Below the pieces are notes generated by a model. It made no database searches. It worked only from the letters and a program-made list of their open reading frames with translations, and had not been told where the DNA came from. 64,000 nucleotides of DNA. Origin: an uncultured Pseudomonadota bacterium. Its GTDB lineage: Bacteria > Pseudomonadota > Alphaproteobacteria > RF32 > CAG-239. This document shows positions 12,042 to 54,431 of the stretch, in pieces (positions within the stretch are counted from its first letter, which is position 1; each line of letters begins with the position of its first letter). The translations under genes were made by a program, and so were the position numbers. The DNA lies in NCBI GenBank assembly GCA_902763155.1, contig CACWQS010000002.1:137566-201565 (forward strand), read 5' to 3'.

Positions 12042-12533
12042 ATGAGTAATTTATATAAATTCAATCAAGACACGCAAATTGATGAATTTGGTGTCGACCA
12101 TTCCAATTTCTCGCTACGAGATGAAATTGAGTATAACACTATGCGGGCTAATCAATCTATGCCCAAACAGCAAAATCCGGTAAGACAAATTGTTGGCGCA
12201 GTTGCGGATATGACGCGAAATTATTTCGATATGAAACGTGATAACACTGTTGGTGCCGATGACTATTTTCATTGTAAAGCCAATTATGAAGCCGCAAATC
12301 ATGGACCATGGGGCGAATTAACAGCACAAATTGTTGGTGATACTAAAGAAGGATTTGACTATTTAAAAAATAGGTTTTACAAAGGATTTAGCTATCCGGA
12401 TGCTTTATCTGATTATTTGCACGACAAAGATGTTAATCTACAAGGGCGACAATTATCAAAGAATCCGTTGTACTCTAACTCAATAGAAGCTTGTCAATAT
12501 CAACGAGTAAAAGATATAAATGAGAAATATTAA
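12042..12533 (+). CDS. serum amyloid A (SAA)-like domain protein
   Basis: Core VADMTRNYFDMKRDNTVGADDYFHCKANYEAANHGPWGELTAQIVGDTKE aligns by eye to the vertebrate SAA core [54 protein letters not shown]. The C-terminus ends ...EKY, as vertebrate SAA does. No signal peptide. Start chosen at MSNLYK (RBS AAGGAAAA). Confidence 0.6.
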   Translation: MSNLYKFNQDTQIDEFGVDHSNFSLRDEIEYNTMRANQSMPKQQNPVRQIVGAVADMTRNYFDMKRDNTVGADDYFHCKANYEAANHGPWGELTAQIVGDTKEGFDYLKNRFYKGFSYPDALSDYLHDKDVNLQGRQLSKNPLYSNSIEACQYQRVKDINEKY

Positions 12534-12801
12534 AAACTTTATGATAACGCTATTCGTTTTTTACCTTAAGGTATGCACGTTTATCGGTTTTATGTTGGTA
12601 ACACTATGCCTTATCGGCGGTATTTATTTGTTTGTTACAGATTCTGATCTTCTGGCTGTAGATTCATGTTTAGATGCCGGAAAAGTCTGGGATTATGAAC
12701 AAAAAATCTGCCGCGATGACTGCTTGACGTGGAATGAAAAAATCGGTTGCGTGCCGATAACAAAAGAAAATATCGAAAAGAAAGCCAAAGGATTATTGTA
12801 A
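12520..12801 (+). CDS. small membrane protein with C-terminal DSCLDxG Cys-rich tail
   Basis: 93 aa, two TM helices, then DSCLDAGKVWDYEQKICRDDCLTWNEKIGC. Overlaps the SAA-like gene by 14 nt. Paralog of 51801..52211. Confidence 0.5.
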   Translation: MRNIKNFMITLFVFYLKVCTFIGFMLVTLCLIGGIYLFVTDSDLLAVDSCLDAGKVWDYEQKICRDDCLTWNEKIGCVPITKENIEKKAKGLL

Positions 12802-12808
12802 ACGGAAA

Positions 12809-12839
12809 GGGCAAGAGCGAAAAACTCTTGCCTTTTTTT
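12809..12839 (+). terminator. rho-independent terminator
   Basis: GGCAAGAG-CGAAAAA-CTCTTGCC followed by TTTTTTT. Confidence 0.7.
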
Positions 12840-12886
12840 ATGTAATTTGTTACATAATATTCAGATAAAAAATAGGGCTTAGAAAT

Positions 12887-13351
12887 ATGGAAAAGTTTTT
12901 CAAACATTCGGTTAAGGCAATTATTATCAAAAACGGTAAACTGTTAACCGTCAGCGTAGATTATGGGCGCGGGAGGTATTGCAAGTTGCCGGGCGGCGGT
13001 CAAGAATGGGGCGAAACCATGTCAGAAACCATCATCCGCGAGTGCAAGGAAGAATTGAACCTTGATATTAAGCCTTTACGTTTGGTTTTGGCGCGAGATT
13101 ATATCGCCAAGAATCATCAGCAACCGTATGATTTAGATTGTTTTCATTTAGCCGAATTGATGTTTGAGTGTGAAGCGGCTGACTTTTCAACTCTCGGCAA
13201 CGGCTCTGAACCGGATAGTAACGAGCAAAAAATCAAGTGGATAGATTTAAATGATTTGGAAAGCTCTGATTTTTACCCGAAGGCAATAATCCCTTATTTA
13301 AAAAATCTCAAAAACATTAAAGAAACGATCGTTTTGGGTGATGTGAATTAG
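12887..13351 (+). CDS. NUDIX hydrolase
   Basis: Nudix box LPGGGQEWGETMSETIIRECKEELNL. Confidence 0.8.
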   Translation: MEKFFKHSVKAIIIKNGKLLTVSVDYGRGRYCKLPGGGQEWGETMSETIIRECKEELNLDIKPLRLVLARDYIAKNHQQPYDLDCFHLAELMFECEAADFSTLGNGSEPDSNEQKIKWIDLNDLESSDFYPKAIIPYLKNLKNIKETIVLGDVN

Positions 13352-13517
13352 TCAATGGCGAAAATAAATATCATTGCTCCTTACATCGGCATCATCTTCG
13401 CACTATAAGCCGTAAAAGTTGTTTTTTAATTTTCCTATCTATCTATTAAATTCTTGACTTTAGCAAATATCTGATTATACTAAAAATTGACAAATTTATT
13501 ATCTAAATATAAACATT

Positions 13518-14150
13518 ATGAAAAAGTTATTATTTATGATGGCTTTGACAACGGTGTTGTTCACGGCCTGCGAAGTTGAAGACCCTGTTGCCGAGGCACA
13601 GGAGCGGGAAAATGCCTTTTGGCTTGATGCCGAGGCTCAAACCGGTGAAAAATCGTATGAAGCCACAATAACGCGGCTTTATGCGGTGGTGTTCCGTCAG
13701 AACTTAATTGTTCCGACTCACGCTTATGTGATGGAGTTGAACTCTAAGCGCTATTTTTATATGTTCCGTTCTCGTTTCGGTATGGACTTAAAGGTTGGCG
13801 ACAAGATTAGCTTCAAAACCAATCCCAATAATCCTTATGAGATTATAGCCATCAACGGTTATGATTTGAGCGGGACCGAAAGTGCCAACGGCGGGAATAA
13901 TTCCGGTGCCGGACAGTATTTGGTAGCTTCTAACCCGATTGAGGCAACCATTCAAGGTATCTTCTCAATGAAGGTGAAATATTTATTGCCACAGCTTGTT
14001 GATATGGTGTTTATCGCCACAACTGACGGTAACCTCATCTACATTAAGCGTGAGAAATTAAATATTGACTTAAAACCCGGAGATCGCATCGTTTATAGCG
14101 TATATACGTTTGTGCCAAATTCGGTAGTGGAACTTAAAAAGCTTCGCTAA
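13518..14150 (+). CDS. putative lipoprotein, unknown function
   Basis: Lipobox LFTAC at the end of the signal peptide. 210 aa, no recognisable domain. Confidence 0.55.
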   Translation: MKKLLFMMALTTVLFTACEVEDPVAEAQERENAFWLDAEAQTGEKSYEATITRLYAVVFRQNLIVPTHAYVMELNSKRYFYMFRSRFGMDLKVGDKISFKTNPNNPYEIIAINGYDLSGTESANGGNNSGAGQYLVASNPIEATIQGIFSMKVKYLLPQLVDMVFIATTDGNLIYIKREKLNIDLKPGDRIVYSVYTFVPNSVVELKKLR

Positions 14151-14156
14151 TTAACA

Positions 14157-14196
14157 ACAAAAAAATCCCTGTCACAAATCAGCGACAGGGATTTTT
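14157..14196. terminator. bidirectional rho-independent terminator
   Basis: ATCCCTGTC...GACAGGGAT hairpin flanked by an A-run and a T-run, between convergent genes. Confidence 0.65.
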
Positions 14197-14213
14197 CTTG
14201 CTTCAAACAAAAA

Positions 14214-14486
14214 TTATTTCAAAGAATCCTTCAAAACTTTACCAGCTTTAAAGCGCGGAGCCTTAGAAGCAGGAATTTTGATTTCTTTACCGTTAGCCGG
14301 ATTGCGACCCATACGAGCAGCACGCTTAGCTACATCAAATGTACCAAAACCGGTAATTTGAACAGCATTACCTTTTTTCAAAGACTTTGTAATAACAGCA
14401 ATAGCAGCATTAACAACTTGAGTGGTAGCAGCTTTAGATGCTTTAGCTTCAGCAGCAACTGCATCAATGAATTCAGTCTTATTCAT
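14214..14486 (-). CDS. hupB: DNA-binding protein HU
   Basis: 90 aa. MNKTEFIDAVA...GFGTF...RNPxTGxxIxIP signature. Confidence 0.92.
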   Translation of the reverse strand: MNKTEFIDAVAAEAKASKAATTQVVNAAIAVITKSLKKGNAVQITGFGTFDVAKRAARMGRNPANGKEIKIPASKAPRFKAGKVLKDSLK

Positions 14487-14582
14487 GTTTATTCCTTTCT
14501 AATGTTTAAAGTCTGGGGCATACCGCCCTTTCACCTGTAATATTCCAAACATTTTTTACAAATGTCAAATAAATTCGTATGT

Positions 14583-15368
14583 TTATAACAATAACTTTCG
14601 TTTTTTTAGCAATTTTTCTTCTTTTTCGCGTCTCAAACGCTCTTTTTCCTCTTTTGCACGCTTATCTTCAATGAGTCCGGCGGCTCTGAAACTGAAATCA
14701 TCATACTGCGAAATAATCACGTGGTCATAAACTTCTATGTCTAAAATTTCCAAGGCCTGAACAATTTCATCCGTTGTCCAGCGGTCAGCATCTGAAGGTT
14801 TGCATCTCCCTGACGGATGATTATGCACTAAAATAACAATCGGAGCCTTAAAATCTAAAGCCATTCTGGCAACTGTTTGCGCCGGAGCATAAGTGCTGTT
14901 CAGCGTTCCGCCGCTTATCTGTTTTTCTCCCAACAACTCCAATCTGCTGTTTAAGAAAAAAGCCCAAAATTCTTCGGTATCTTTATAGCCGATTCTCTTA
15001 CGGCAATAATCAATAAAAATATCCCATACTTCAAATATCGGACGATTACCCTCGGCGAAACACGAGCTGGAAGTGCGCAACCCGCAAGTTGCAATCGCTT
15101 TCAGCAAAGTTACTACATTTTCAGTCAGTTCACCCTTTTCGACCAAATCGTGCTTTGATGCGTTCAAAATCTGCGCAAGATTACCAAAATTTTTAATCAA
15201 TTTTTTAGCCAGCGGTTTCACATCACGACGCGGTATGGCATACATCAACAAAAGTTCCAACAACTCATAGTCCGGCATACTCATACCGTCATCAACCAAA
15301 AATCTTTCTTTTAATCTGGCACGATGCCCTAAATAATCCGGCTTTTGGTCATTATTTTGCGCTGTCAT
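14583..15368 (-). CDS. radC: RadC-like JAB/MPN domain protein
   Basis: HhH N-domain and JAMM motif HNHPSG. Confidence 0.85.
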   Translation of the reverse strand: MTAQNNDQKPDYLGHRARLKERFLVDDGMSMPDYELLELLLMYAIPRRDVKPLAKKLIKNFGNLAQILNASKHDLVEKGELTENVVTLLKAIATCGLRTSSSCFAEGNRPIFEVWDIFIDYCRKRIGYKDTEEFWAFFLNSRLELLGEKQISGGTLNSTYAPAQTVARMALDFKAPIVILVHNHPSGRCKPSDADRWTTDEIVQALEILDIEVYDHVIISQYDDFSFRAAGLIEDKRAKEEKERLRREKEEKLLKKRKLLL

Positions 15369-15388
15369 AGTCCAAGTCCCTGTTATAC

Positions 15389-16189
15389 TTATTTATATGG
15401 TGGCTTATCAAGCCCTTTAGGAGAATATGTGAACACCTCAACCCCGTCTTTGGTTACTCCCATCGAATGTTCAAACTGCGCTGACCATTGATGGTCACAT
15501 GTAACCGCCGTCCAACCGTTAGAAAGGATAACCCCGTCTTTCTTTCCCATATTTATCATCGGCTCTATAGTGAACAGCATACCTTCTTCCATAGCCGGAC
15601 CTGTCCCCTTGCGCCCGCAATGCAACACATTCGGCTCATCATGAAAAACTTTGCCCAAACCATGTCCGCAAAACATATCTACCACCGAATATCCGTATTT
15701 ATGCGCATATTCTTCAATCACGGCACCAATATCCCCAAAATGCGCTCCCGGTCTTACCACATCTATCCCGCGCATCAAACATTCGTAGGTAACTTCACAC
15801 AAGCGCTTACCTTTTATCTTCGGTTTTCCGGCAAAATACATCCGGCTGGTATCACCGTAATAACCGTCAACAATCGCCGTAACATCAATATTCAAAATAT
15901 CGCCGTCAGCTAATTTACGTTCATAATCCGGAATACCGTGGCAAATCACCTGATTGATGGAAATACATGTTGCCTTCGGATACCCGTGATACCCCAAACA
16001 AGCCGAAACTGCGCCATGTTCTTCCATAAATTTCAGGCACAAATCATCAAGCTCACCCGTTGTAACACCTACCTGCACATAATCGGTGATAAAATCCAAG
16101 CATTCGGCCGCCACCCTGCCGGCTTTGCGCATACCTTCAAAATCGGCCGGTTCATCATATATTTTGATATTGTCTTTATTTACCCGCAA
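15389..16189 (-). CDS. map: methionine aminopeptidase type I
   Basis: 266 aa. Metal-binding residues in conserved contexts (DVTAIVDGYYGDTSRMY, FCGHGLG). Confidence 0.9.
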   Translation of the reverse strand: MRVNKDNIKIYDEPADFEGMRKAGRVAAECLDFITDYVQVGVTTGELDDLCLKFMEEHGAVSACLGYHGYPKATCISINQVICHGIPDYERKLADGDILNIDVTAIVDGYYGDTSRMYFAGKPKIKGKRLCEVTYECLMRGIDVVRPGAHFGDIGAVIEEYAHKYGYSVVDMFCGHGLGKVFHDEPNVLHCGRKGTGPAMEEGMLFTIEPMINMGKKDGVILSNGWTAVTCDHQWSAQFEHSMGVTKDGVEVFTYSPKGLDKPPYK

Positions 16190-16260
16190 CGTTTTTCTCC
16201 TTTACAAAGCAAGGAATATAACATTTGCGCACAAAAAACAAGAGCTATTTTGCAATAATC

Positions 16261-18495
16261 CTATCTGCTACCATAACCGCCGTTTTTGAAATTTCGCTCC
16301 AAGCGGCGTTGCTCTTTTTGTTCTCTTTTCTTTTCGTGGCGAGATTTTTTGCCTGATTTATCTTTTTTGCTCAGCTTTTCTTTACCGGCGTTTTTGCCTA
16401 TAGTGATAATCTTGCCGGCTTCGCGCTTACCGTAATTATGCTTTTTACCGAATTCTTTCTGACTTTCCTCAGCTTTGCGCTGATGGTTTGATTGCACCCG
16501 CGGGGTTTCTTCTTCCAACAGCAAGGCTTTTTCAAGCATATCGTCTTGCTTGGTCATCAGCCGTTCGCCGGTTTTGCTCAAAAGGGCTATAACCACATCG
16601 GCACGGTTGGTTTCCTGATACAGTCCGTTCATAGATTTCAGCACAATTTGTCCGCTGCCCGGAGTGCGTTCCAGCGCCAAAAAGCATTGGTCTTCAATGT
16701 TTATACGGCGGATAACGTTTGAATATCCCGGCTTTAGCTCAATTATATCACCGTTGGCAAAATTATGAAATTCAATGCGTTTGTTGTCTTGCAGGGCGCG
16801 GGCGCTGTTTTCGCGCTGGTCAAAGTTGCCGTGCAGGCCGATAACCTGCAGCTTTTTGCCTTTGCGCGCCATAAGTTTGAAGGCATTTTTGCAGTGTTTC
16901 ATCACATTGCTGATAGATTGTCTTAAGCCGCCGGCTTTGTTGTGGCCGCTCATCTGGCGTTTTTTAACAAAATGACACATCTTGAGCAGGTCGGCAACCT
17001 TGTGTTTTTCCAGCTCGGCTTTGCTCAGTTCGTTTAGGAAAATGGTAGCACCGCAACGTGCAGCTCCGCGATAGGTTTCCACCGTTTGCCAAAAGCGCAC
17101 ACCGCCGATAAGGCGTTGACAGCCGTCTATCACGCATTTGCGACCCAAAGGAAAATGCCCTTCGTCGCCGCGTATCATATGCACCAAACCGGAAACCTGG
17201 TCGCCAGACTCTTTTTCATAGCCTTCGCCAAATGCCCCGCTAACGAAAAGATTTTGCTTATTAAAGTCCACATCTTGGTTATATTTTTCGGCATCAGGTT
17301 TTATAATATTATTATAGCTCCACACCACATCTTTGAAATCTTCGGCGCGATACATTTTCACATTTTGCTCGCGCAAAGCATTCAAGTTCTTTTCCGAAGT
17401 TTTTTGCAAATGGCCGCGTTTATCAATATAGAATATTTCATTACATTCCTGCCAAGCACGAAAAGATTCGCGCATCTGCCAGCCGTCGATAAACACTTTT
17501 TTGCCTTGTTCGGCACAAACCACCAAAGATGGCAGCCAGTTTTCAATGCTGCGCGAAATGAGCGGGGTGATGATGCGCGCTTCTTTGTTGTAATTAAAAA
17601 TTTCTCTTACGGCATTACAACTGTCTTCAAAACTAAACTCTTCTTCGGCGTTTTCGTTGCCGTAATCATCAAATTCAGCAAGGACTTCTTCCATTCCGGT
17701 AGAAGTAGAATCAGCCCCGATATGGGTAATATCGTGCTTAGAAAGGAACTTTTGCGCTTCCGGATTATCGCCGGAAAGGCCGGTGAGAGAAGCTGATACC
17801 CGATTATCGCCGGGGTTCAAATATCCCACGCCAGACGGGCTGGAAAGAATGTATCCGTATGAGCCGACGGTGGGGTGCGAAACCGGCAGCGAGCCCACTT
17901 TCAGCTCTTTGATTTTTTCGTCTTTATACGGAGCCAAAATTTTGAACTGCGGAAAAGAGCCTTTCGGCAAATGATATTGCTTTAAGAGAGAATAGAATCT
18001 TTTTTGGGTATATTCGCTACCGAACAGCGGCGGCATTTGCAGCTTATGTTCGTGGGCATACAGGGTCATATAAATGAGCGAATCCAAATGGTCGGCATGG
18101 CAATGGGTAATAAAAATGGCGTCAAGCGGATATTTGGCTTTTTCTCCGTCCGGCGAGGGCAAAAACATTCTGAAATCGGGCATATAAGAATCATATTGGG
18201 AATTTTTTTCAATATATTCTTGGGCTTGTTCTTCGTTTTGCTCTTCGTTTTTGCCGGAAGAAAGTTTGACTCCGGCATCTATCATAATTCGACGTGTTTT
18301 ACCGTTTTCTTCATACTCAAACACTTGGCAATTTGCACCAATCCCGTCATTATTGCCGGCCGGAACCCCCCCCCACAAGCCATAATCTCGTTTGTTCGTT
18401 TTGCTGTGCCATGTCATTAACTCCGCTAATATATTTTTCACGTTTGCTTCATTATACACAAATATTGACAAAATGCAAACATTTTTATTCCGCAT
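16261..18495 (-). CDS. rnj: ribonuclease J-like metallo-beta-lactamase/beta-CASP nuclease with large insertions and a Lys-rich C-terminal tail
   Basis: MBL motifs (IDAGVK; ITHCHADHLDS; PVSHPTVGSYGY). DSTST and ISRSIENW segments resemble beta-CASP. HGNFDQRE and NGDIIEL resemble the RNase J C-terminal region. At 744 aa it is about 190 aa longer than typical RNase J. The C-terminal 60 aa are K/R/E-rich. Confidence 0.55.
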   Translation of the reverse strand: MRNKNVCILSIFVYNEANVKNILAELMTWHSKTNKRDYGLWGGVPAGNNDGIGANCQVFEYEENGKTRRIMIDAGVKLSSGKNEEQNEEQAQEYIEKNSQYDSYMPDFRMFLPSPDGEKAKYPLDAIFITHCHADHLDSLIYMTLYAHEHKLQMPPLFGSEYTQKRFYSLLKQYHLPKGSFPQFKILAPYKDEKIKELKVGSLPVSHPTVGSYGYILSSPSGVGYLNPGDNRVSASLTGLSGDNPEAQKFLSKHDITHIGADSTSTGMEEVLAEFDDYGNENAEEEFSFEDSCNAVREIFNYNKEARIITPLISRSIENWLPSLVVCAEQGKKVFIDGWQMRESFRAWQECNEIFYIDKRGHLQKTSEKNLNALREQNVKMYRAEDFKDVVWSYNNIIKPDAEKYNQDVDFNKQNLFVSGAFGEGYEKESGDQVSGLVHMIRGDEGHFPLGRKCVIDGCQRLIGGVRFWQTVETYRGAARCGATIFLNELSKAELEKHKVADLLKMCHFVKKRQMSGHNKAGGLRQSISNVMKHCKNAFKLMARKGKKLQVIGLHGNFDQRENSARALQDNKRIEFHNFANGDIIELKPGYSNVIRRINIEDQCFLALERTPGSGQIVLKSMNGLYQETNRADVVIALLSKTGERLMTKQDDMLEKALLLEEETPRVQSNHQRKAEESQKEFGKKHNYGKREAGKIITIGKNAGKEKLSKKDKSGKKSRHEKKREQKEQRRLERNFKNGGYGSR

Positions 18496-18555
18496 ATTGA
18501 ATTTTTTTAATCTGCAAATACATTGTAAATAAATTTTTCATGTCAGGAGAAAAAA

Positions 18556-43489: not shown

Positions 43490-43576
43490 GCCAATCCGAA
43501 TATGCGAACTCCCAGTCCGCTTGGTGTTTTTATAATATATTAACTCTTGGTTGATATAACAAAATTGAGGTGTGTT

Positions 43577-45625
43577 ATGAAAAAATTACTCTTAATGCTT
43601 GGAATATTCTTTGCTTTGCTTAAAAATGCGCAGGCTATTGATGAAAAAGAAAAAGAGATGTTTGACCGGTTTATTAATTTTACCGGAACTTATGAAGAAG
43701 ATTTACATCGTTTTAAGCAAAAACCATTGGTTGATTTAACCAAAGAAGAGCAAAAATCTGTTGCCGATTTTTCAATAGAGCGCAAAATTAATCCGCAATA
43801 TATTGAGAAATATGAGCAAGATACCAAACAGCAATATTCTCCAGCCGCAAAATTAAATCCATGGTTGGCAAGTTATTATGACACCGCATATTTTATTGAA
43901 TATTTGGAAAAAATTCCGGCACGCACTTTGGCACAAAAATATCAATTGTTGATTTTGTGGCAGATTTATAAACCGGAAAAAGTCGGTTCTGAAGAGTATA
44001 AAAAAATTGCCGAGTCCGCTCATGCCAAAACAATGGAATATTTGGCTGATGATGATAATTGGCAGGCTTCGTGGCGCCGTGAGGAATATGAAGAAATTGT
44101 GCAAGATGATTTTCAAAAGTGTTATGCCGATAAAAATTGCTTGGTAAAAGCTATTCCATATTGGATGGACTTACGTATTCCGATGAAAGTGATTTTGCCG
44201 TGCGATTTTGCTAAAGAGCATAATTTGTTATATTATTATGACGGTGCTGCAGGCGGTTCCGGTACTCAGGCAATTATGGTTTCTACATGTATTGCCGATG
44301 AAAAGTATAATTTTACACCGGAGCTTGATGCTTACATAGATAATGTGATTTCCGAAACCATACCTTACAGTTCTGGCTCAATAGTTAATGTATTTTATGC
44401 CAATGCCGATGCCCATTATTGGGATATAAAATATCAGCCGAATTTTAAAATCGATAAAATTGCCAATTGGCAGGAGTTTCCTTATACCGAATGGGCGGTG
44501 CAATCATATTATAATTTCAAAAAATTCAATAGTGTTATCAATAAAGGTGTCGGTTATAAGAAGGCCGTTGATATGCTTAAAGACCATTATGTAAAAGTAT
44601 TTAAAGCCAAACCGGAACAGGCCTTAAACGCAGCTTTAGTAACACTGAATCCACCGTCTTCATACGATTTTAAACGCATTACGCCGGATAATTTGAACTA
44701 TCTTTTGCTAATCGGAGCCGATTGGGAAAAAATTAAAGAGCAATTACCTGAAAACAATGACATAGCAGAATTGTTGGAATTAAGTATTGCCCATCCGCAG
44801 AACTTAAAACAACTCGTAAAACTAACAAAAAATGTCGATAAACCAAACAGTTTCGGTAAAACTCCATTGCAAACCGCCGCACAATACGGCTATTTTGAAA
44901 GTATTAAAATTTTACTTGATGCCGGTGCGGATATCAATCACCAAACTGTTGACTCCAATTGTTTTTCGGATTTTGAAATTGAGTGTATTCATAACGGCAA
45001 ACGCACGGCTTTAATGTATGCCTTACAAGAAAATCAGTATGAAACAGCAAAATATTTACTAGAAAAAGGTGCCGATATAACTTTAACCGATTCACAAGAA
45101 ATGACGGCACTTGATTATTTGATGAAAAAAGCGCCGAAATTCAGTACACACCGAACCGGAACAATTTACGGAGGTGAAGCTAATTGGCGAGAGCCGGAAG
45201 ATAATGAGAAACTGCCGACCGAACAATATGATGAGTTGTATAAACGTTTATTTTTCCATCAACAACCGCAAATCGCCGATGTTTTGGCTGGAAAATGGGA
45301 ATCAGAAGAAAAAGAAGAAACGGCTGTTTTTGAAAAAAATAACGATACCGATAAGCCTTTGTTAATTATTAAAAATGAACGTGGCGTATGGGCTGAATGT
45401 GATGCACAAGAAGATTCCCGCAACGTTTTTAATTGTATTTTTGAGCCGGATAAAGGCGATAAAAATAAATTTGATGTTTATTTTGCAATTTCTCATTATT
45501 ATAAGGATAAAGTAATCATATATTACAGTCTGGAACCGAATGTGCTTGATCGCTGTGTACAAGATGACGCTTGCGAACCTGAAATTTTAGCAACGCTGGA
45601 ACGAGAGGTAGAACACGATAAATAA
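43577..45625 (+). CDS. secreted ankyrin-repeat protein
   Basis: Signal peptide MKKLLLMLGIFFALLKNAQA. Ankyrin repeats, e.g. GKTPLQTAAQYGYFESIKILLDAGADINHQ and RTALMYALQENQYETAKYLLEKGADITL. Confidence 0.75.
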   Translation: MKKLLLMLGIFFALLKNAQAIDEKEKEMFDRFINFTGTYEEDLHRFKQKPLVDLTKEEQKSVADFSIERKINPQYIEKYEQDTKQQYSPAAKLNPWLASYYDTAYFIEYLEKIPARTLAQKYQLLILWQIYKPEKVGSEEYKKIAESAHAKTMEYLADDDNWQASWRREEYEEIVQDDFQKCYADKNCLVKAIPYWMDLRIPMKVILPCDFAKEHNLLYYYDGAAGGSGTQAIMVSTCIADEKYNFTPELDAYIDNVISETIPYSSGSIVNVFYANADAHYWDIKYQPNFKIDKIANWQEFPYTEWAVQSYYNFKKFNSVINKGVGYKKAVDMLKDHYVKVFKAKPEQALNAALVTLNPPSSYDFKRITPDNLNYLLLIGADWEKIKEQLPENNDIAELLELSIAHPQNLKQLVKLTKNVDKPNSFGKTPLQTAAQYGYFESIKILLDAGADINHQTVDSNCFSDFEIECIHNGKRTALMYALQENQYETAKYLLEKGADITLTDSQEMTALDYLMKKAPKFSTHRTGTIYGGEANWREPEDNEKLPTEQYDELYKRLFFHQQPQIADVLAGKWESEEKEETAVFEKNNDTDKPLLIIKNERGVWAECDAQEDSRNVFNCIFEPDKGDKNKFDVYFAISHYYKDKVIIYYSLEPNVLDRCVQDDACEPEILATLEREVEHDK

Positions 45626-46267: not shown

Positions 46268-46282
46268 GAACAGAAATAGAAC
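46268..46282 (+). promoter_or_regulatory. candidate alphaproteobacterial LexA (SOS) box GAAC-N7-GAAC upstream of dinB
   Basis: GAACAGAAATAGAAC, 15 nt upstream of the dinB ATG. Confidence 0.55.
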
Positions 46283-46296
46283 ATTGAAGAGGTAAA

Positions 46297-47454: not shown

Positions 47455-47490
47455 AAATAAATCCACGTAACCCGCATATTTTACTGAACG

Positions 47491-47733
47491 ATGCGCAAAT
47501 ATAAGGATATCAAGCCAAGCAACCGGACAAACTTTGTGATGGTCTATTATCACGCCGGACGCACATTAACTCAAATCGAAACTTTACTAAAAAAGGCCTA
47601 CGGCAACCCACTACCGGTCAGACCTCGCGACCGCTTGAACCGCCTGCAATTCAAACTCGAACAAATGGCTGTCCGGTATAAACAATGCCAAAATGAGCTT
47701 CATATTCAGTATCAAAAACAGAAAGAAAAATAG
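47491..47733 (+). CDS. small basic hypothetical ORF (possible remnant of a mobile-element HTH)
   Basis: 80 aa, K/R-rich. Uncertain whether it is expressed. Confidence 0.25.
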   Translation: MRKYKDIKPSNRTNFVMVYYHAGRTLTQIETLLKKAYGNPLPVRPRDRLNRLQFKLEQMAVRYKQCQNELHIQYQKQKEK

Positions 47734-47759
47734 TTATTGTTTTTTTAAGATTCCTTGTT

Positions 47760-48010
47760 TATAGTTAATTTCGTTAGGACAGCCCAAGTCCTGACAGGAC
47801 ATTGACAGTCTAATCGCTATGGGCAAAACATAACTTTTGTGTTACGTTGTAATATAAAAGACGATTGCCATATTGGGCATCTCACCGTAACGGGTGGATG
47901 CCAGTGAATAAGGCATATACCCAATAGCTGGGCTACTTATCATAGCGATTGTAGTGTCAACGTCCACCCACCTTACAAGGTGGGTGAATTTGTTTGGGCT
48001 GATTGGTAAT
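47760..48010. ncRNA. GC-enriched, highly self-complementary noncoding stretch (candidate structured RNA or decayed element)
   Basis: Long-range pairing AATCGCTATG (about 47812) with CATAGCGATT (about 47943). Hairpins GGCATCTCACC..GGGTGGATGCC and CACCCACC-TTACAA-GGTGGGTG. Local GC is clearly above its surroundings. Confidence 0.2.
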
Positions 48011-48015
48011 TCAGT

Positions 48016-48468
48016 TTGAGCATATGCGCGTTTTTCGGCCACCGCGACACCCCGATGTCATCTTCAATAGAAAACCATTTATCGGAAGTTGTCAGAGGCT
48101 TAATTATAAATCATGATGTAACTGAATTTTGGCTTTGTGAACAAGGAACGTTTGACTGCTTGTCGCGTCTTGTAATGAATGAACTAAAAAAAGAATTTGA
48201 ATATATAACTCTTTGCATATTTCCCGCATATTATCCAAATAACGCCAAACTTGATTGGATGGATGATAATAATTACGATTTGATGTATCCTGATGAAGTA
48301 GCCAAAGCGCCACCGCAAGTTGCTATTTTACGTCGCAACGAATATATTGCTAAAAATGCCGATTATATTGTTTGCTACATAAACCGTAAATCAGGCGGAG
48401 CCTATAAGGCAGTTGAAATTGCGAGAAAATACGATAAAAAAATAATCAACCTCGCCGAGTATATTTAA
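48016..48468 (+). CDS. YpsA/DUF1273-like (SLOG superfamily) protein
   Basis: The AFFGHRDTP N-terminus and 150 aa length resemble YpsA/YoqJ-type SLOG proteins, often phage-associated. Tentative. Confidence 0.45.
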   Translation: MSICAFFGHRDTPMSSSIENHLSEVVRGLIINHDVTEFWLCEQGTFDCLSRLVMNELKKEFEYITLCIFPAYYPNNAKLDWMDDNNYDLMYPDEVAKAPPQVAILRRNEYIAKNADYIVCYINRKSGGAYKAVEIARKYDKKIINLAEYI

Positions 48469-48512
48469 TTCAAGCCTTACAGCTTCAAATGTTCTAAAAA
48501 CGCCTGATTATC

Positions 48513-49097
48513 TCAACAAATTTTACGGACACTTTTGCAAGGAACGCCATAAGCTAAAGTGTTGGCAGGAACATCTTTTGTAACAACACTTGCGGCACCG
48601 ATGATTGAATTATCGCCTATGCTGACACCCGGAAGGATTGTAACATTTGCGCCAATCCATACATTTTTACCGATTTTAACCGGTTTAGGCATAGCATTAC
48701 ATCTTTTTTCAGGGGCAAATTCATGGTTCAGTGTAACAATCGTAACATTACTACCCAGCATTGAATTATCACCGATTTCTATTCCGCCATTATCTTGAAA
48801 ATGGCAACAGGTATTGATAAAAACCTTTTTCCCCAGTTTGATATTTTTGCCGAACTCGGTGTAAAAAGGTGGCAATATCAGGCAATCTTTATCGACTTTG
48901 CGCGCAATCAGCTCAGAAAACAGCGCTCTGACTTCTTCAGGTGTGTGGTATTTATTATTCAATTCCATCGTGATTTTTAGAGCTTCTTGACCATATTCAT
49001 AAAAAGATTGTAACAAATCCGTCCCGAATATCATCGGTGTTCCTTTTTTCATTATAGCTCTGATTTGCGGTATGCTTAATATTTTTTTACCCATCAT
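48513..49097 (-). CDS. hexapeptide-repeat sugar O-acetyltransferase (Maa/LacA-like)
   Basis: Left-handed beta-helix repeats and IGDNSMLGSNVTIV...GKNVWIGANVTILPGVSIGDNSIIGAASVV. Confidence 0.8.
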   Translation of the reverse strand: MMGKKILSIPQIRAIMKKGTPMIFGTDLLQSFYEYGQEALKITMELNNKYHTPEEVRALFSELIARKVDKDCLILPPFYTEFGKNIKLGKKVFINTCCHFQDNGGIEIGDNSMLGSNVTIVTLNHEFAPEKRCNAMPKPVKIGKNVWIGANVTILPGVSIGDNSIIGAASVVTKDVPANTLAYGVPCKSVRKIC

Positions 49098-49560
49098 TAT
49101 TCTCCTTAAGTAAATACTCTAAAAATGCCTGACAGCCTTCATAAATATCCCAATAGCTCTCGTCAAAGTTTCCGGTATACCAAGGGTCGCGGATGTTGCG
49201 TGGGTGGTCTGTAAAATCTAATAAGCGGTGGATTTTGTGCTCTGTATCCGGACCGACGAGCGATTGAATGTCCTCAATGTTGCTGTCGTCCATCGCCAGA
49301 ATATAGTCATAATAAGCGTAATCGCGCAGGCGAATTTGCCGCGAATAATGCTCCTCGAACGGAATTTGCATGGCTTTCAGCTTGTCGCGGGTGCCGTGAT
49401 GAATGCCGGCATGACACATCTCATTGTAACTTTCGGTCGCGGCGGAATCTATTTCAAACTGATCGGATAAACTGCGCTCCTCAACCATCTGCTTAAACAC
49501 AAACTCCGCCATCGGCGACCGACAAATATTCCCCAGACATACAAACAAAACTTTAATCAT
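49087..49560 (-). CDS. low-molecular-weight protein-tyrosine phosphatase
   Basis: P-loop VLFVCLGNICRSPMAE and a DP motif further down. Confidence 0.85.
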   Translation of the reverse strand: MIKVLFVCLGNICRSPMAEFVFKQMVEERSLSDQFEIDSAATESYNEMCHAGIHHGTRDKLKAMQIPFEEHYSRQIRLRDYAYYDYILAMDDSNIEDIQSLVGPDTEHKIHRLLDFTDHPRNIRDPWYTGNFDESYWDIYEGCQAFLEYLLKENNDG

Positions 49561-49679
49561 AAAGACATCTCCCAACCTTAGAGTATATGATTAATTTAAA
49601 ATTACAAGATTCTTTTTGACATCTCGCATTTTGCGATGATAATTAAAGCAACTGATATTTTTGGAAAAGGAGATAAAAA

Positions 49680-50024
49680 ATGCCGTACATTGAAGCAAAA
49701 ATGAGCATTAAACTGGATGAAAACCAGAAAGACGCGTTGCAAAAGAAGTTAACCTGCGCCGTATCGGTCGCATTTGGCAAGCCGAAAGCCTACATTATGG
49801 CGTGCATAGAGGACGACAAATCGCTGTATATGGCGGAGCGGAAGCTCGAAAAAGGTGCCTACATCGCTATTCGGCTGCTTGGTTCGGCGTCTAAATCGGC
49901 GTGTCAGGGCTTAACTGGCGAAATTTGCCGCATTTTACAAAGCGACTATGGTATTGATGGCGCAAATGTTTATATCACCTACCACCCAACCGACCTTTGG
50001 GGTTGGAACGGCGGAATGTTTTAA
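49680..50024 (+). CDS. MIF (macrophage migration inhibitory factor)/tautomerase-family protein
   Basis: 114 aa with Pro at position 2 (MPYIE...). AFGKPKAYIMACI resembles MIF ATGKPPQYIAVHV. The C-terminus NVYITYHPTDLWGWNGGMF resembles MIF [22 protein letters not shown]. Confidence 0.55.
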   Translation: MPYIEAKMSIKLDENQKDALQKKLTCAVSVAFGKPKAYIMACIEDDKSLYMAERKLEKGAYIAIRLLGSASKSACQGLTGEICRILQSDYGIDGANVYITYHPTDLWGWNGGMF

Positions 50025-50039
50025 TTATATATAGCAAAA

Positions 50040-50726
50040 TCAAGCATATTGTGCCAATAAATCTTTCCAAACCTGCGGCGCATCTATTTCATCAAAATAG
50101 GTTTTCAAAAAATTGACAATTACTTCATGTCTTTTTTCTATAAATCTGCGCCCCGGTTCGGTCAAAGCCATACTGCGCAACCGAAACAGTTTATCAAAAA
50201 AATGATTTACAATCGGGCAATAAGTTATTTTCTTATATTTTTCCGCATCCATTTCTACCGGCAGATAATCGGGATCAAAAAACGGCTCATTACCACCCGA
50301 ACGATGGGCGCGGTATTCAATACAACGAATAACCCCTATTAAGCCGGTTGCATCGGCCATATCCGCATCAGAAACTATCTTGCCTTCTATACAATCCGGC
50401 ACAATCCCGCTCAAACGCTTGCTGTAGCCGATTGTTTTAACAATTTTGAGACAATTATTGATAAAATCATCGTCAAATCCCGATTTTGCCAATATACGAC
50501 ACGTATTTGTTAGCAAACGCGCAGATTCTTCTCCGAATAATTTATAATCGTCGCAGTCATGCAACAGAGCCGCGGCAGCAACCAAATCACGATTGGCATC
50601 ATTAATCTCATCGCAAAATTTCATGGCATTTTCATAAACGCGAAATACATGCTTATCATCATGCCCGCTAAAATCATTATGCAACAACTCAAAAACAGCT
50701 TGTTTTATATACTCTATACCGCTCAT
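50040..50726 (-). CDS. HD-domain phosphohydrolase
   Basis: H...HD motif region (AAALLHDCDD) and a conserved D further down. Confidence 0.7.
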   Translation of the reverse strand: MSGIEYIKQAVFELLHNDFSGHDDKHVFRVYENAMKFCDEINDANRDLVAAAALLHDCDDYKLFGEESARLLTNTCRILAKSGFDDDFINNCLKIVKTIGYSKRLSGIVPDCIEGKIVSDADMADATGLIGVIRCIEYRAHRSGGNEPFFDPDYLPVEMDAEKYKKITYCPIVNHFFDKLFRLRSMALTEPGRRFIEKRHEVIVNFLKTYFDEIDAPQVWKDLLAQYA

Positions 50727-50744
50727 ATAAATCTCCTCTGATGT

Positions 50745-51434
50745 TTATATTTTAAGTCGGCGCCTGTGTTTTACAACCGCAAAAGCGTGGCTTTCTTTGA
50801 GTAGCTCAAACAAAACCTCGTCCGGCACAGTATCGTCAAGTGTAATTGTAAGCCAATTTTTCTTATTCATATGATACGCCGGATAAAAGCCGGCCTGCTT
50901 GTGCAATTCCGGTATTTTCGCCTCATTTAATTTAATATTCATTACCTCAACTTCACAGGAAAGCTTTTTATTTAACTTGCTTCGATCGATGCTCATAATC
51001 AGCGCATACCATTTGCCGTTATCCGGATTTTTGAAAACTCCGTAATTGCAGTTTTCCCACGGGAAAACCGGCGCGTCACCGTAAGCGTCAAAAATTGCCT
51101 GCGTTAAGCGGTTGGCCTGCGAATGCACAAAATAGTTAATCCGGCAACAATTTGCTTTGATTCTTTCCAAAATCTTTTGATATTCGGCACGCACTTCGCC
51201 GGCAAAACCCTCCATATCTTCAACGCGCAACGGCAAAAATTCATCATCGGTGGCTGTTTCAAGCACTTTTCCGGAAACATTACTTTGCGGGGTAATATTT
51301 ACCACTGCTTTAAAATCGCCATCCATAAACAGCTCGCTATACGTCCACTTGCCGTCAGACTTGATAAATCCGAACTTTTCAAGCCGACCAAAATCAATAA
51401 TCGTGCGTTTAAATATCTTATCTTCTATGGTCAT
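50745..51434 (-). CDS. MmcQ/YjbR-family protein with an N-terminal extension
   Basis: The C-terminal ~120 aa (PWENCNYGVFKNPDNGKWYALIMSID...KKNWLTITLDD) resemble MmcQ/YjbR. Confidence 0.55.
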   Translation of the reverse strand: MTIEDKIFKRTIIDFGRLEKFGFIKSDGKWTYSELFMDGDFKAVVNITPQSNVSGKVLETATDDEFLPLRVEDMEGFAGEVRAEYQKILERIKANCCRINYFVHSQANRLTQAIFDAYGDAPVFPWENCNYGVFKNPDNGKWYALIMSIDRSKLNKKLSCEVEVMNIKLNEAKIPELHKQAGFYPAYHMNKKNWLTITLDDTVPDEVLFELLKESHAFAVVKHRRRLKI

Positions 51435-51460
51435 AATTTACCTCTTGTCTCTGAGCATAA

Positions 51461-51799
51461 ATGTTTCTGCGCAAAATTGCAAATCTATTCAAAAAATTTT
51501 TACATTTCGCTACCGATTATGCCGTTATTACGGAAGACAGAAAATCCCAAGCAAAAAAGCGCGGCAAAGCAAGAGACAACAAATACGCACCGTTTCGCAA
51601 ATATTTTAAAAATTTGCAACAACAAAAATTTATAGAATTTAAAAATGCAGGACTTGTATTAAAAGCAAGCGAATTCTTGTATTGGTTTTTAGAAAATAAA
51701 ACAGAAGAAATCGTAATACCATATAAAAAAAGTAATCAATATTATAAATTGATAGGGTTAGCTCAAGAAAATAACAGAGAGTTTAAAAAGTACCTATAG
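51461..51799 (+). CDS. basic hypothetical protein
   Basis: 112 aa, K/R-rich. Its stop abuts the start of the next gene. Weak RBS. Confidence 0.3.
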   Translation: MFLRKIANLFKKFLHFATDYAVITEDRKSQAKKRGKARDNKYAPFRKYFKNLQQQKFIEFKNAGLVLKASEFLYWFLENKTEEIVIPYKKSNQYYKLIGLAQENNREFKKYL

Positions 51800-51800
51800 A

Positions 51801-52211
51801 ATGCAAGAGGCACTTACCTCGCTTCGCAGTATATTTTATTTGACGTGTTTTGATGTATTTTTTGTTTATGCTTTTTTATTAAAGAAAATGAAAGAACAAC
51901 AGAAGATATCTTATTTATTTTCCAGCAAACATATAAAATTACTTGAAGTCGTTATCAGTAATTTGTTTTATTACTTATGTTGGGTTATAATAGGATTTTA
52001 TTTTATAAGTATGAGTATAAATATAATTTCTTTGTATTTTGACCCTTACGATATGGATAGTTGCTTGGATACGGGTATTTGTAGAGAAGGTATTACTTTT
52101 GACAATTGCGAAGACGGTCTACCATGTACCATAACCAAAGAAAGTTGTATAGAAAATAGCAATATATGGCTTGAGGATATCCGTAGTTGTGACATTAGGC
52201 ACAACATTTAA
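51801..52211 (+). CDS. small membrane protein with C-terminal DSCLDxG Cys-rich tail (paralog of 12520..12801)
   Basis: TM helices, then MDSCLDTGICREGITFDNCEDGLPCTITKESCIEN. Compare VDSCLDAGKVWDYEQKICRDDCLTWNEKIGC at 12.7 kb. Confidence 0.45.
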   Translation: MQEALTSLRSIFYLTCFDVFFVYAFLLKKMKEQQKISYLFSSKHIKLLEVVISNLFYYLCWVIIGFYFISMSINIISLYFDPYDMDSCLDTGICREGITFDNCEDGLPCTITKESCIENSNIWLEDIRSCDIRHNI

Positions 52212-52444
52212 AATATCAATATTTGGGAATTTTTACTTGCGTATTAGGTAATTATTCGGTAACTATCCGGTAAATATTCGGAAATAAAACGCAAAAAACT
52301 TGCGCTTAGGGCTTTGCTAAGCAAGGAATTGCCGAAGAAAACTACCCGCAGTATGGCACAAATTTTTGGGGTGGTTCGCCGGAAAATAACTACGGTTTCG
52401 GCACTTCAAACATAAGCGGCAATATTGAAAATGTTACAAACCAG

Positions 52445-53155
52445 TTGAATAATGATGGATTTGGTGGCGGAGTAAGCAACGGTTTCGGTAGCGGAGCGAG
52501 TAATAGCGGTTTTGGTAACGCACCAACCAACAGCTACGGAAATAATCTCAACAATAATCAAACCAATAACGGATATAATTATACAACTGATATTCAAAAA
52601 CAGCAGTGTATTGATTCGTCTGGAATGCAATGCACACCGCAAAATAACAATAATTCTGCCAATATGACATCTAGGTATCCGGATTATTCACAACCGGCAT
52701 CTTTGGAATTTGACGGGCAGAATTTGGTTTGGTTGCAAAATGGTCAACCGGTAAAGTATTATCCGGCAGTATCAGGAAGAGCAGATTATCAAAGTGCTCA
52801 ATACACAAATGAAAGGAAAAGGGGTCCTATTCCTGAAGGAGATTATTTGTTAGGTCAAGGGACCGGAGAAGATTATAACAATAAAGAAGAAATGTCTTGG
52901 TGGAGAAAATTTGTACCATGGAATGATAATCCTTGGTATGAAAATCCTGCGGCATGGGGGAAATCTCGTATTCCTATTCAACCGCTCCCTACCACGAATA
53001 CATTCGGCCGGCATAGTATGTATGTCCATGGTGGGAATGTTCCCGGTTCGGCAGGTTGCATAGATTTAACTTATGCTAATGATGATTTCTATAATGATTT
53101 TAAAAATTATAATGGAACTTTACCTCTCAAAGTCAAGTACAAAAAAGGTTGGTAA
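52445..53155 (+). CDS. L,D-transpeptidase-fold (YkuD/Tlde1-like) domain protein with a Gly/Asn-rich N-terminus. Likely a toxin cassette, and the 5' end may be truncated
   Basis: The C-terminal domain carries YYPAVSGRADY...GPIPEGDYLLG...GRHSMYVHGGNVPGSAGCIDL, a His/Cys catalytic pair in LD-transpeptidase-like spacing. The only in-frame start is TTG at 52445. The frame stays open and is still G/N-rich (NYPQYGTNFWGGSPENNYGFGTSNISGN) back to a stop at 52307, with no ATG. Confidence 0.5.
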   Translation: MNNDGFGGGVSNGFGSGASNSGFGNAPTNSYGNNLNNNQTNNGYNYTTDIQKQQCIDSSGMQCTPQNNNNSANMTSRYPDYSQPASLEFDGQNLVWLQNGQPVKYYPAVSGRADYQSAQYTNERKRGPIPEGDYLLGQGTGEDYNNKEEMSWWRKFVPWNDNPWYENPAAWGKSRIPIQPLPTTNTFGRHSMYVHGGNVPGSAGCIDLTYANDDFYNDFKNYNGTLPLKVKYKKGW

Positions 53156-53162
53156 TTTTAAG

Positions 53163-53193
53163 GAAGGCAGGGAAAAATTCCTTGCCTTTTTTA
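53163..53193 (+). terminator. terminator-like hairpin after the toxin-domain ORF
   Basis: AAGGCAGG-GAAAAATT-CCTTGCCTT followed by TTTTTT. Confidence 0.45.
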
Positions 53194-53244
53194 TTATTTA
53201 TTTTATATATTGAATCACAATACATTATTAGCAGAAGGTGTGAA

Positions 53245-53580
53245 ATGTTTACAAAATTTAAAAAATATATGAAGGTTATTGCATATATTATCTTTACTTT
53301 GGTTGAACTCTTTTATATTAGAATAATCTTTGCACTTTATAATGCTATTCAAATCACCAGAGATGGTGGCTTTGTTAAATCCATTGATGAGAATAATCCC
53401 GTTTGGTATTATCAGTCTGAAGATAATATGATTTTACATGATAAAGTATTAATTGGTGGCTTTTTGTTATTTTTGATATTACCATTTATTTTTATCCGTA
53501 AACCGCAATGGGCTATATTATTGCAAGTCTTTTGGCTGGTGTTGGCTATTATCGAAGGATACTATATAAAATCATTATGA
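53245..53580 (+). CDS. small 3-TM membrane protein (candidate immunity/accessory)
   Basis: MFTKFKKYMKVIAYIIFTLVELFYI.... RBS AGGTG. 111 aa. Confidence 0.45.
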   Translation: MFTKFKKYMKVIAYIIFTLVELFYIRIIFALYNAIQITRDGGFVKSIDENNPVWYYQSEDNMILHDKVLIGGFLLFLILPFIFIRKPQWAILLQVFWLVLAIIEGYYIKSL

Positions 53581-53606
53581 CAAAACAGCCTTTTAGGAGC
53601 AATCAA

Positions 53607-53933
53607 ATGAAAATCACCTTTCAAAAAATTAAGAATGTAGGTAAATACTTTATTTTTGGTCTTTTATACATCTTTGGAATACTCAACTTATATTTCTTTT
53701 GGTTAAGAGCATGGCGCGTAAAGGATGTTATGAATTATACTGATGCAAATTATAAAGGATATCTTGATATCATTGAAATGTACGTTGGTTATATAAGCGG
53801 ATGGTCTATTTTATTTATAATATCATTTGTGTATTCGCTTATTTATATTAAAAATAAATCCTTATATGCATTCATGTGGCTATTTTTACCCGTAATTTAT
53901 TTGTTAACTTTAGCATATCATGAATATTTATAG
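53607..53933 (+). CDS. small 3-TM membrane protein (candidate immunity/accessory)
   Basis: MKITFQKIKNVGKYFIFGLLYIFGI.... RBS AGGAG. 108 aa. Confidence 0.45.
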   Translation: MKITFQKIKNVGKYFIFGLLYIFGILNLYFFWLRAWRVKDVMNYTDANYKGYLDIIEMYVGYISGWSILFIISFVYSLIYIKNKSLYAFMWLFLPVIYLLTLAYHEYL

Positions 53934-53972
53934 GAAGATTTCTTGGCAGTAAATATCCGAAGGAGGATTGCG

Positions 53973-54185
53973 ATGAACTCATACGACGATATATTAAAAA
54001 GAATTGGTAAATATATAGGATATACTATACTCTTTATTCTTTCTTTGATTATAATAGGTGTAGTTGCAGGTATTACTTGGTACGCACTAACCGAACATAG
54101 CTATAAAGATTGTGATAATCAATTTATCAATGGTTGTATGTCAGCAGGGTTAAGTGAAGAAGTCTGTAAAGGCAGAGTTTATTAA
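53973..54185 (+). CDS. small 1-TM membrane protein with YKDC...C tail
   Basis: RBS GGAGG. TM helix, then HSYKDCDNQFINGCMSAGLSEEVCKG. Paralog of the next gene. Confidence 0.45.
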   Translation: MNSYDDILKRIGKYIGYTILFILSLIIIGVVAGITWYALTEHSYKDCDNQFINGCMSAGLSEEVCKGRVY

Positions 54186-54203
54186 GCTGTGAGGATTTAT
54201 TGG

Positions 54204-54431
54204 ATGACAGAAGAACACCAAATATGCGTAAAGCAAATATTAGATAAAGCAGTTAGCGGTATTTATAAAATTGCACTTTATTGTATCGTATTTGTTTTAA
54301 TCTGTGTTATAGCTTTCTTTTTCTTATATCCGCATTATCAGGAATATGCATACAAAAAAGATTGCTTGCAAAACGGGCACCAAAAAGAATGGTGCGAGAA
54401 GACGTGGCAGGAATTATTAGAGTTGGATTAA
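54204..54431 (+). CDS. small 1-TM membrane protein with YKKDC...C tail
   Basis: TM helix, then YAYKKDCLQNGHQKEWCEKTW. Paralogous to 53973..54185. Confidence 0.4.
   Translation: MTEEHQICVKQILDKAVSGIYKIALYCIVFVLICVIAFFFLYPHYQEYAYKKDCLQNGHQKEWCEKTWQELLELD

Follow-up and report, generated by a model that had tools for sequence, protein, structure and literature searches.

Small membrane proteins encoded with serum amyloid A-like toxins in gut and rumen Alphaproteobacteria: a predicted set of immunity partners

Four short open reading frames (ORFs), here named A to D, were analyzed in a 64,000-nucleotide stretch of contig CACWQS010000002.1, from an uncultured alphaproteobacterium; the whole stretch is referred to below as the window. 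We put at roughly three in four the probability that A, B, C and D are immunity proteins, anchored in the inner membrane with their tails facing the periplasm, of a polymorphic toxin system of gut and rumen Alphaproteobacteria. An initial annotation of this DNA had suggested that they serve as dedicated partners or immunity proteins, and this role is well supported by a gene order that is conserved in about 90 related loci.

All four ORFs lie on the + strand and were recovered at the annotated positions: A at 12520..12801 (93 aa), B at 51801..52211 (136 aa), C at 53973..54185 (70 aa) and D at 54204..54431 (75 aa). They are real, conserved genes. The exact sequences of all four are called genes in a public protein collection, in 90%-identity clusters of 7-20 members each. 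Recurrence and conservation in relatives were also confirmed: A has 69 relatives at cluster level, about 80-100 aa long, and the family of C and D comprises 94 clusters at 90% identity.

The layout that the four ORFs were said to share was found in most of its parts. A basic N-terminus, one transmembrane (TM) helix ahead of the tail and an acidic tail with cysteines are present in each, B having one extra TM helix upstream of the tail-proximal one. The cysteine count of three to four had to be corrected to four in A, six in B, three in C and two in D. Topology prediction by the positive-inside rule agreed with cytoplasmic N-termini and external C-termini (N-in/C-out) for all four. With 21 occurrences in the window, the bare motif C[LMV]xxG is not significant by itself; it was dropped as evidence, and only family-level evidence was counted. 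A, B, C and D were scanned against Pfam, NCBIfam, PHROGs and PADLOC, as were two neighboring genes described below (E1 and E2), with no significant match.

Toxin tips and their downstream partners

Burroughs, Nicastro and Aravind (2025, eLife, PMC12419801) placed serum amyloid A (SAA) in the Lipocone superfamily and identified its prokaryotic form, prok-SAA, as a tip carried by polymorphic toxins. For each A-, B- or C/D-family gene in all fetched related loci (L-numbers below; P-numbers denote relative proteins), the upstream ORF was tabulated. The short form of A followed an '...IN[ED]KY' SAA tip in 11 of 12 assessable cases (the window, L053 and nine metagenome loci), mostly with a 14-nt overlap. 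The toxin-A overlap was seen in L053 too, and in an independent metagenome scan nine of the ten assessable A-type genes came directly after a '...DDYFHCKAN...IN[ED]KY' SAA tip, again mostly overlapping by 14 nt. A long form of A (132-134 aa, with an extra cysteine-rich extension) was located directly after a prok-SAA tip of another subtype, 'DDYHHCKAN...NPAFPK.YW', in L012, L013, L063 and L075.

The other types showed pairings of their own. The B-type gene of L041 starts 69 nt downstream of a Pfam-positive 'DNYYHCVGN' SAA tip, and in L070 a B-type gene is found at the same distance from a remnant of this tip. C-types (C itself and forms of 66 and 71 aa) follow 'DKYKHA..NC' SAA tips with overlaps of 37-50 nt in L007, L018, L082, L034, L037, L070 and L084. 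D-types (D and forms of 67-72 aa) follow 'DNYYH[PA]LLQC' tips in L002, L003, L017, L019, L024 and L034, and here the immunity variant and the tip variant change together. The tips upstream of A-long, B-type and C-type genes scored above the Pfam SAA threshold. The YYHPLLQC tip gave no Pfam hit; a local profile hidden Markov model (HMM) of SAA tips matched such tips with E=2.6e-9 to 2e-6 in a database of 4100 ORFs. These tip subtypes are also listed as Prok-SAA in PMC12419801.

Where a small gene had no toxin gene directly upstream, another small partner gene was found in that position. The orphan string of L015 consists of a Tlde1 toxin gene, an E2-like gene, C, D67, C66 and D. Orphan arrays of this sort are typical of polymorphic toxin loci.

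The annotation had placed each of the four ORFs next to a candidate cargo gene, which is true of A only: in the window B comes after a truncated accessory gene, C after E2 and D after C. B-, C- and D-types were found directly downstream of SAA tips in relatives, not in the window, where B, C and D would be orphan immunity genes whose own toxins are absent. The four are firmly united by function as read from context, since every type is encoded downstream of an SAA-type toxin tip as its partner.

A fifth partner type was noticed in L055 (5870..6238) and L084 (1494..1865). It is a protein of 122-123 aa with three TM helices, ending in 'H.[AQ]CIE.S..PCP[ED]G[IV]VL.GG', and its gene comes after 'NFFHCKANYEAA' SAA tips.

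The gene upstream of A (12042..12533, + strand) encodes a short-form polymorphic toxin of 163 aa with a prok-SAA (Lipocone) tip; the ORF list starts it at an alternative GTG, at 12009. Its N-terminal motif 'GVDHSNFSLRDEIEY' is the core of the N-terminal module of the toxin family (core region 12042..12180), and its tip is of the subtype '...DDYFHCKANYEAA...NLQGR...INEKY'. The protein matched Pfam SAA (PF00277) with 63.8 bits (cutoff 30.8). It retains 'YFHCKANYEAA' and 'VNLQGR', so that both prok-SAA motifs, the H-x-K/x-A-N helix and sNxxGR, are kept, and near relatives appear as Prok-SAA in supplementary file 18 of PMC12419801. The start of A overlaps the toxin stop by 14 nt. Three nucleotides past the A stop codon, an intrinsic-terminator-like hairpin (12804..12838, + strand), with a 14-pair stem followed by a T run, ends the toxin-A bicistron. 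A is most likely the cognate immunity partner of this intact toxin.

An alignment of 33 relatives of A showed C50, C64, C68 and C77 to be invariant, and the family pattern is a TM helix followed by CLDxGK[IV]YDPxQKICRDDCLTWxxKIGCVPITKENIEKK. The AlphaFold2 (AF2) model of A (pLDDT 89) has a TM helix at residues 2-40, a helix at 44-52, strands at 56-58, 63-65, 68-72 and 76-79, and a short terminal helix. A Foldseek search of the PDB with this model gave no match (best E=3.9). In some relatives (P0149-P0152) this domain is preceded by three TM helices.

An immunity type coupled to prok-SAA or Min-Wnt toxins has been described computationally as 'TM+[TM+TM+]Imm-SAA', with an alpha-helix, four beta-strands and four absolutely conserved cysteines (PMC12419801). 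The overlap with the toxin gene, the family and the AF2 model all point to A as a predicted immunity protein of this type, with a membrane-anchored four-cysteine ectodomain. A has one TM anchor, with three-TM variants among its relatives, a helix and four strands, and four invariant cysteines; its gene lies directly after that of a prok-SAA toxin, and the domain is predicted at the periplasmic face of the membrane. A thus fits Imm-SAA as compared by the verbal description, not by the sequences of the family. The A type has therefore been described already, only computationally (PMC12419801), and the statement that no described family has these motifs does not hold for it. For the C/D type, no fitting description was found in the literature.

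Two A-type immunity genes were seen side by side in L083, at 3001..3390 (three TM helices) and 3802..4038 (a single one), with no toxin gene nearby, as an orphan pair.

Relationships among the partner types

The four ORFs had been grouped into two paralog pairs. This grouping holds for C and D, which by alignment are clearly true paralogs of one family, and is only moderately supported for A and B. Phmmer chained C, the 66- and 71-aa forms, the 67-aa form and D by significant hits. The alignment is collinear over the full length, through a K.IL.K motif, the TM helix and C[LMIV]xxGxxxExC, of which Cys-Gly-Cys is invariant. The 'YK(K)DC' motif that C and D were thought to have in common proved misleading: the true alignment pairs 'NGC' of C with 'KDC' of D, so the cysteine of that motif is not homologous.

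Only two cysteines are conserved in the C/D family, and the ectodomain spans about 30 residues. C is the predicted immunity type for 'DKYKHA..NC' SAA tips and D for 'DNYYH[PA]LLQC' SAA-like tips. Like Imm-SAA, the B-, C- and D-types come after SAA-type tips in relatives. Unlike it, C and D have two conserved cysteines and an ectodomain of that small size, and B has six conserved cysteines and a multi-TM N-terminal part. The C/D tails are too short for the helix and four strands of Imm-SAA. The two-cysteine type is not covered by the definition in PMC12419801 and may represent a new family of small immunity proteins in a known kind of system.

An exhaustive search with the C/D profile returned 75 representatives at 50% identity, nearly all of them unnamed proteins of 42-95 aa, together with a few long repeat proteins; at least two to three of the 75 (repeat proteins) are probably spurious. 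The eukaryotic FN2-repeat proteins P0249 and P0276 and the repeat protein P0287 were rejected as relatives, their scores being an artefact of many weak repeat matches summed.

The sequence P0288 (584 aa) was also observed. It is an actinobacterial-looking Ser/Thr-kinase-like protein in which, over residues ~400-584, one TM helix is followed by four extracellular repeats 'YI[DE]EC..DGHSESECE.SW'. The repeats closely resemble the D-type ectodomain, and the first of them, 'DCLDAGYDEEAC', resembles the CLDAG motif of A.

Homology of A and B is moderately supported by sequence comparison. They have the pattern DSCLDxG...ICR...ITKE in common, pairwise BLASTP gave E=8e-4, and full-length hhalign gave a probability of 70% (P=4e-5, 56 columns). 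The ectodomains alone aligned weakly in hhalign (P=0.011), and an HMM of the A ectodomain matched neither B nor C/D. The link of A and B to C/D is weak. With ectodomains only, hhalign aligned nine columns around C[LM]xxG (P=0.03 for A and 0.005 for B against C/D); full-length probabilities were 60-69% for A and 21% for B against C/D. The full-length A HMM ranked C/D-type proteins right after A-types (E=0.0045-0.9). A common origin of all four is possible but unproven.

ORF B is a 5'-truncated multi-TM gene with a six-cysteine ectodomain. Its body (window 51817..52204, 388 bp) matches the 3' portion of a full-length gene in L084 at 98.7% identity. Full-length B-type genes encode multi-TM proteins of 231-280 aa, and longer relatives of B were found as P0021 and at L041 7182..7964 and L070 2400..3167. 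B is therefore a 5'-truncated copy, fused to an accessory-gene remnant. It lacks about 98 N-terminal codons, with sharp breakpoints at ~51812-51817 and 52204-52310. All six cysteines are invariant among B-types. The AF2 model of B, built on a 7-sequence alignment, had a pLDDT below 55 in the ectodomain and was unusable for fold comparison with A. From the two loci named above, B-types are predicted to be the immunity type for 'DNYYHCVGN' SAA tips.

The gene directly upstream of B (51461..51799, + strand), annotated as a basic cargo protein, gave no significant Pfam or NCBIfam match. It resembles L007 4211..4675 and L003 3205..3672, and by blastn window positions 51519..51811 were 71% identical to L018. 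By this similarity it is a homolog of an accessory gene of about 155 aa, and not cargo; the homology is partial and the N-terminus differs. The accessory gene precedes full-length toxin genes in relatives, and its full-length homolog in L007 had no Pfam, PHROGs or PADLOC match.

The variable island beside tRNA-Pro

The second locus of the window, to which B, C and D belong, is a decayed polymorphic-toxin island. Its conserved end is a tRNA-Pro gene (TGG; 54875..54951, - strand), found with ARAGORN. D closes the region between an MIF gene and this tRNA gene, for which at least four different contents were found on contigs with identical D. D was found on 31 contigs, and the identical protein closes the island in four different locus types. 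In L007 the order is the basic accessory gene, a 300-aa toxin gene with an SAA tip (4775..5677), C overlapping the toxin end, and D.

Full-length toxins of this family consist of an N-terminal module of about 100 residues, a low-complexity linker rich in N, G and Q, and an exchangeable C-terminal tip. The module, MDIWDEIKKL.GYQSG.GGVDSYGVDHSGFS.RDELEYQ...NYPQYGTNFWG..PENNYGFG, had no Pfam, PHROGs or PADLOC match. It recurs in 74 loci of alphaproteobacterial metagenome-assembled genomes from rumen and gut, several per genome. Tips among these 74 loci include several SAA subtypes, Tlde1, a pesticin/lysozyme-like domain, 'NYGLDK', 'AYKYANY' and 'THREGA'. The basic gene of about 155 aa, without family match, often precedes the full-length toxin genes.

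One toxin gene is left in the island. The gene at 52310..53155 (+ strand), annotated as resembling an L,D-transpeptidase (LDT), encodes a 5'-truncated toxin of the Tlde1/YkuD L,D-transpeptidase type (Pfam YkuD 31.7 bits, Tlde1_dom 27.2 bits). Its frame opens at 52310, directly after a stop codon, and inside the conserved N-terminal module, where 'GFAKQGIAEENYPQYG...' corresponds to residue 53 of the L007 toxin; the earliest start codon is a TTG at 52445. Given that no start codon comes before this TTG and that the frame opens at module residue 53, the gene is a 5'-truncated orphan toxin, without its first ~52 codons. The fragment was left by a rearrangement that also inserted the B fragment.

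Two genes separate the toxin fragment from C. E1 (53245..53580, + strand) encodes a protein of 111 aa with three predicted TM helices, and E2 (53577..53933, + strand), whose start overlaps the E1 stop in an ATGA arrangement, a 3-TM protein of the 108-118 aa class. E1-like genes come directly after Tlde1 tips in L016 and L023, and an E2-like gene directly after the Tlde1 tip in L015; in all, 3-TM proteins of 108-118 aa (E1, E2 and one further type) come next after the Tlde1 tips of L010, L015, L016 and L023. By this gene order E1 and E2 are probably membrane-embedded Tlde1 immunity proteins. C and D were rejected as Tlde1 immunity proteins on the same grounds, as Tlde1 tips go with 3-TM proteins and the C- and D-types with SAA tips. 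Of the partner assignments first made within the window, that of A to its own toxin stands; those of B to the basic protein and of C and D to the Tlde1 fragment were given up.

Between D and tRNA-Pro there is a repeat of about 290 bp (54482..54773), with 88% identity to L003 4473..4758. It is found at cassette borders in relatives, being upstream of a toxin fragment in L003, with shorter pieces in L041 and L007, and may be a cassette-border or recombination sequence.

The state of this island raises the question whether B, C and D are decaying remnants of cassette exchange without present function, A alone being functional. The degradation is visible in the codons missing from the Tlde1 gene and from B, in the partial accessory gene and in the sharp breakpoints. 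However, the frames of C and D are intact and have good Shine-Dalgarno sequences (AAGGAGG, a strong one, ahead of C), and identical or nearly identical copies were found on many contigs. The dN/dS ratios were 0.09-0.23 for C-types in the informative pairs (0.5 for the window-L015 pair, with three differences) and 0.12-0.25 for D-types. Values of 0.09-0.25 indicate that these genes are kept by purifying selection even as orphans. As for B, the 136-aa form is present on at least four contigs, and P0155 retains only the last TM helix and the ectodomain, so that part is possibly the functional unit. We consider general decay unlikely; it is plausible for the truncated B only.

Proposed mechanism, alternatives and known systems

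In the proposed mechanism, the prok-SAA tips would attack lipid-linked cell-wall precursors on the outer side of the inner membrane, splitting off their pyrophosphate-linked head group. This is the type of bond cut, in lipid-linked precursors, by the Lipocone enzymes studied so far. TelC has lipid II as its substrate and is opposed by TipC outside the cytoplasm (PMC12419801); YfiM is a lipid-linked oligosaccharide pyrophosphatase, and likewise VanZ/Llp1 according to the same preprint (bioRxiv 10.64898/2026.09.16.752124). The biochemical target of the toxin is inferred from the homology of SAA tips with TelC, VanZ/Llp1 and YfiM; the topology, disulfides, binding and neutralisation of the partners are inferred as well. 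The signal-anchor would hold a small ectodomain, stabilised by disulfides, on the periplasmic side of the inner membrane, which would be the toxin's site of action and where disulfides can form. The partner would directly bind and block the incoming tip in a subtype-specific manner, as TipC does for TelC. The truncated B, C and D, retained as orphans, would guard against the toxins of neighbors, because their cognate SAA tips occur at the same or similar loci in related genomes.

Several points weigh against assigning immunity to all four. The role is read from gene order only, and to our knowledge neither prok-SAA toxins nor Imm-SAA proteins have been examined by experiment. The membership of A in Imm-SAA comes from the match to a published verbal description. 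The B-type link to an SAA tip comes from two loci, L041 and L070; the B-type gene in L084 is itself an orphan, and B, 5'-truncated in the window, may be non-functional. D occupies the constant 3' end of many variants of the island, as an accessory function for the whole locus would also allow. No secretion system, including type VI secretion system (T6SS) genes, and no Dsb genes were seen in the window.

A broader claim can be made only tentatively, and we think it rather less than evenly probable: that C/D is a distinct undescribed minimal immunity module for divergent SAA/Lipocone tips, whose hairpin motif is reused in the actinobacterial kinase-like repeats, and that together with the ~100-aa toxin module and the ~155-aa accessory gene it forms a new delivery-immunity system specific to gut and rumen Alphaproteobacteria.

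The small membrane proteins could instead help in release, lysis or export, like colicin lysis or holin-like proteins. Their very small size, single membrane pass and position immediately behind toxin genes would suit such a role, as would the unchanged D at the island end whatever toxin lies upstream, and the profile scans pointed to no secretion route for the toxin family. However, one would expect a helper to accompany the N-terminal module that the toxins have in common, and the partner subtype instead tracks the tip subtype. Strings of different partners occur without an intact toxin (L015, L083 and the window), the orphans are still under purifying selection, and A matches a domain already assigned as immunity (PMC12419801). 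A helper function is, in our judgment, quite improbable.

Least probable, with a very small chance, is that the hydrophobic N-termini are cleaved signal peptides and the cysteine tails secreted disulfide peptides (bacteriocins or signalling peptides): the basic n-region, hydrophobic stretch and short acidic cysteine tail superficially resemble peptide precursors, but the hydrophobic stretches span 19-35 residues with no evident AxA-type cleavage site, AF2 gives A one long TM helix, relatives with three or more TM helices (P0149-P0152, full-length B) fit an anchor rather than a leader, and the conserved cytoplasmic 'K.IL.K' of C/D argues that the N-terminus belongs to the mature protein.

As predicted membrane-anchored immunity proteins, A-D can be compared with known systems. 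TelC of Streptococcus intermedius is a toxin of the same superfamily, and TipC is membrane- or lipid-anchored and acts outside the cytoplasm (PMC12419801); in contrast to A-D, TipC has another fold and no sequence similarity to them, and the pair is Gram-positive and delivered by a type VII secretion system. The N-terminal module of the toxins analyzed here is not among the delivery domains of prok-SAA toxins given in PMC12419801 (RHS, MuF, T6SS).

Further parallels concern the island. Tlde1-Tldi1 of Salmonella is a T6SS L,D-transpeptidase effector with a periplasmic immunity protein. The LDT-like gene of the window has a YkuD/Tlde1 domain and is likewise followed by candidate immunity genes, but these are the 3-TM E1 and E2, the toxin gene lacks its 5' end and the window showed no T6SS genes. 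Orphan arrays of Rhs and contact-dependent inhibition (CDI) systems are similar in having displaced toxin fragments without the N-terminal delivery part and retained immunity genes stacked 3'. They differ in the delivery module and in the toxin and immunity families, and the island described here is beside a tRNA gene in Alphaproteobacteria.

Otherwise the system is of an expected kind, that of polymorphic toxins with immunity genes. Within one clade, the loci offer a naturally occurring matrix in which subtypes of SAA-like (Lipocone) toxins are matched with tiny partners of at least five types, and short pairs such as the 163-aa toxin and the 93-aa A are convenient, easily synthesised reagents. 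Two questions could be addressed with them: whether lipid-linked cell-wall precursors are the target of bacterial SAA homologs, a point of relevance to the effect of animal serum amyloid A on bacteria, and how a disulfide domain of ~30-50 residues can confer specificity. The orphan immunity string beside tRNA-Pro would record strain-level warfare in rumen and gut communities.

In L063 (4938..8162), a toxin gene and a 3-TM partner gene were seen directly upstream of small and large terminase-like genes. The published prok-SAA set includes MuF (phage-head) fusions (PMC12419801). Together, the terminase-like neighbors and these fusions suggest a possible link to phage or gene-transfer-agent particles.

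The window has a GC content of about 40%. An origin from Bacteroidales with a T6SS, first considered on account of the GC content and the Tlde1 match, was rejected: the source names and the 74 related loci all point to alphaproteobacterial metagenome-assembled genomes, and T6SS genes were not seen in the window. Housekeeping genes elsewhere in it encode LysRS, SecA, DnaJ, RNase G and MlaE, and Rho was noted from the identical locus L001. Ankyrin-repeat proteins are unusual in bacteria and frequent in host-associated species; the window encodes one of 692 aa, at 43547..45625 (Pfam Ank_2 and related families).

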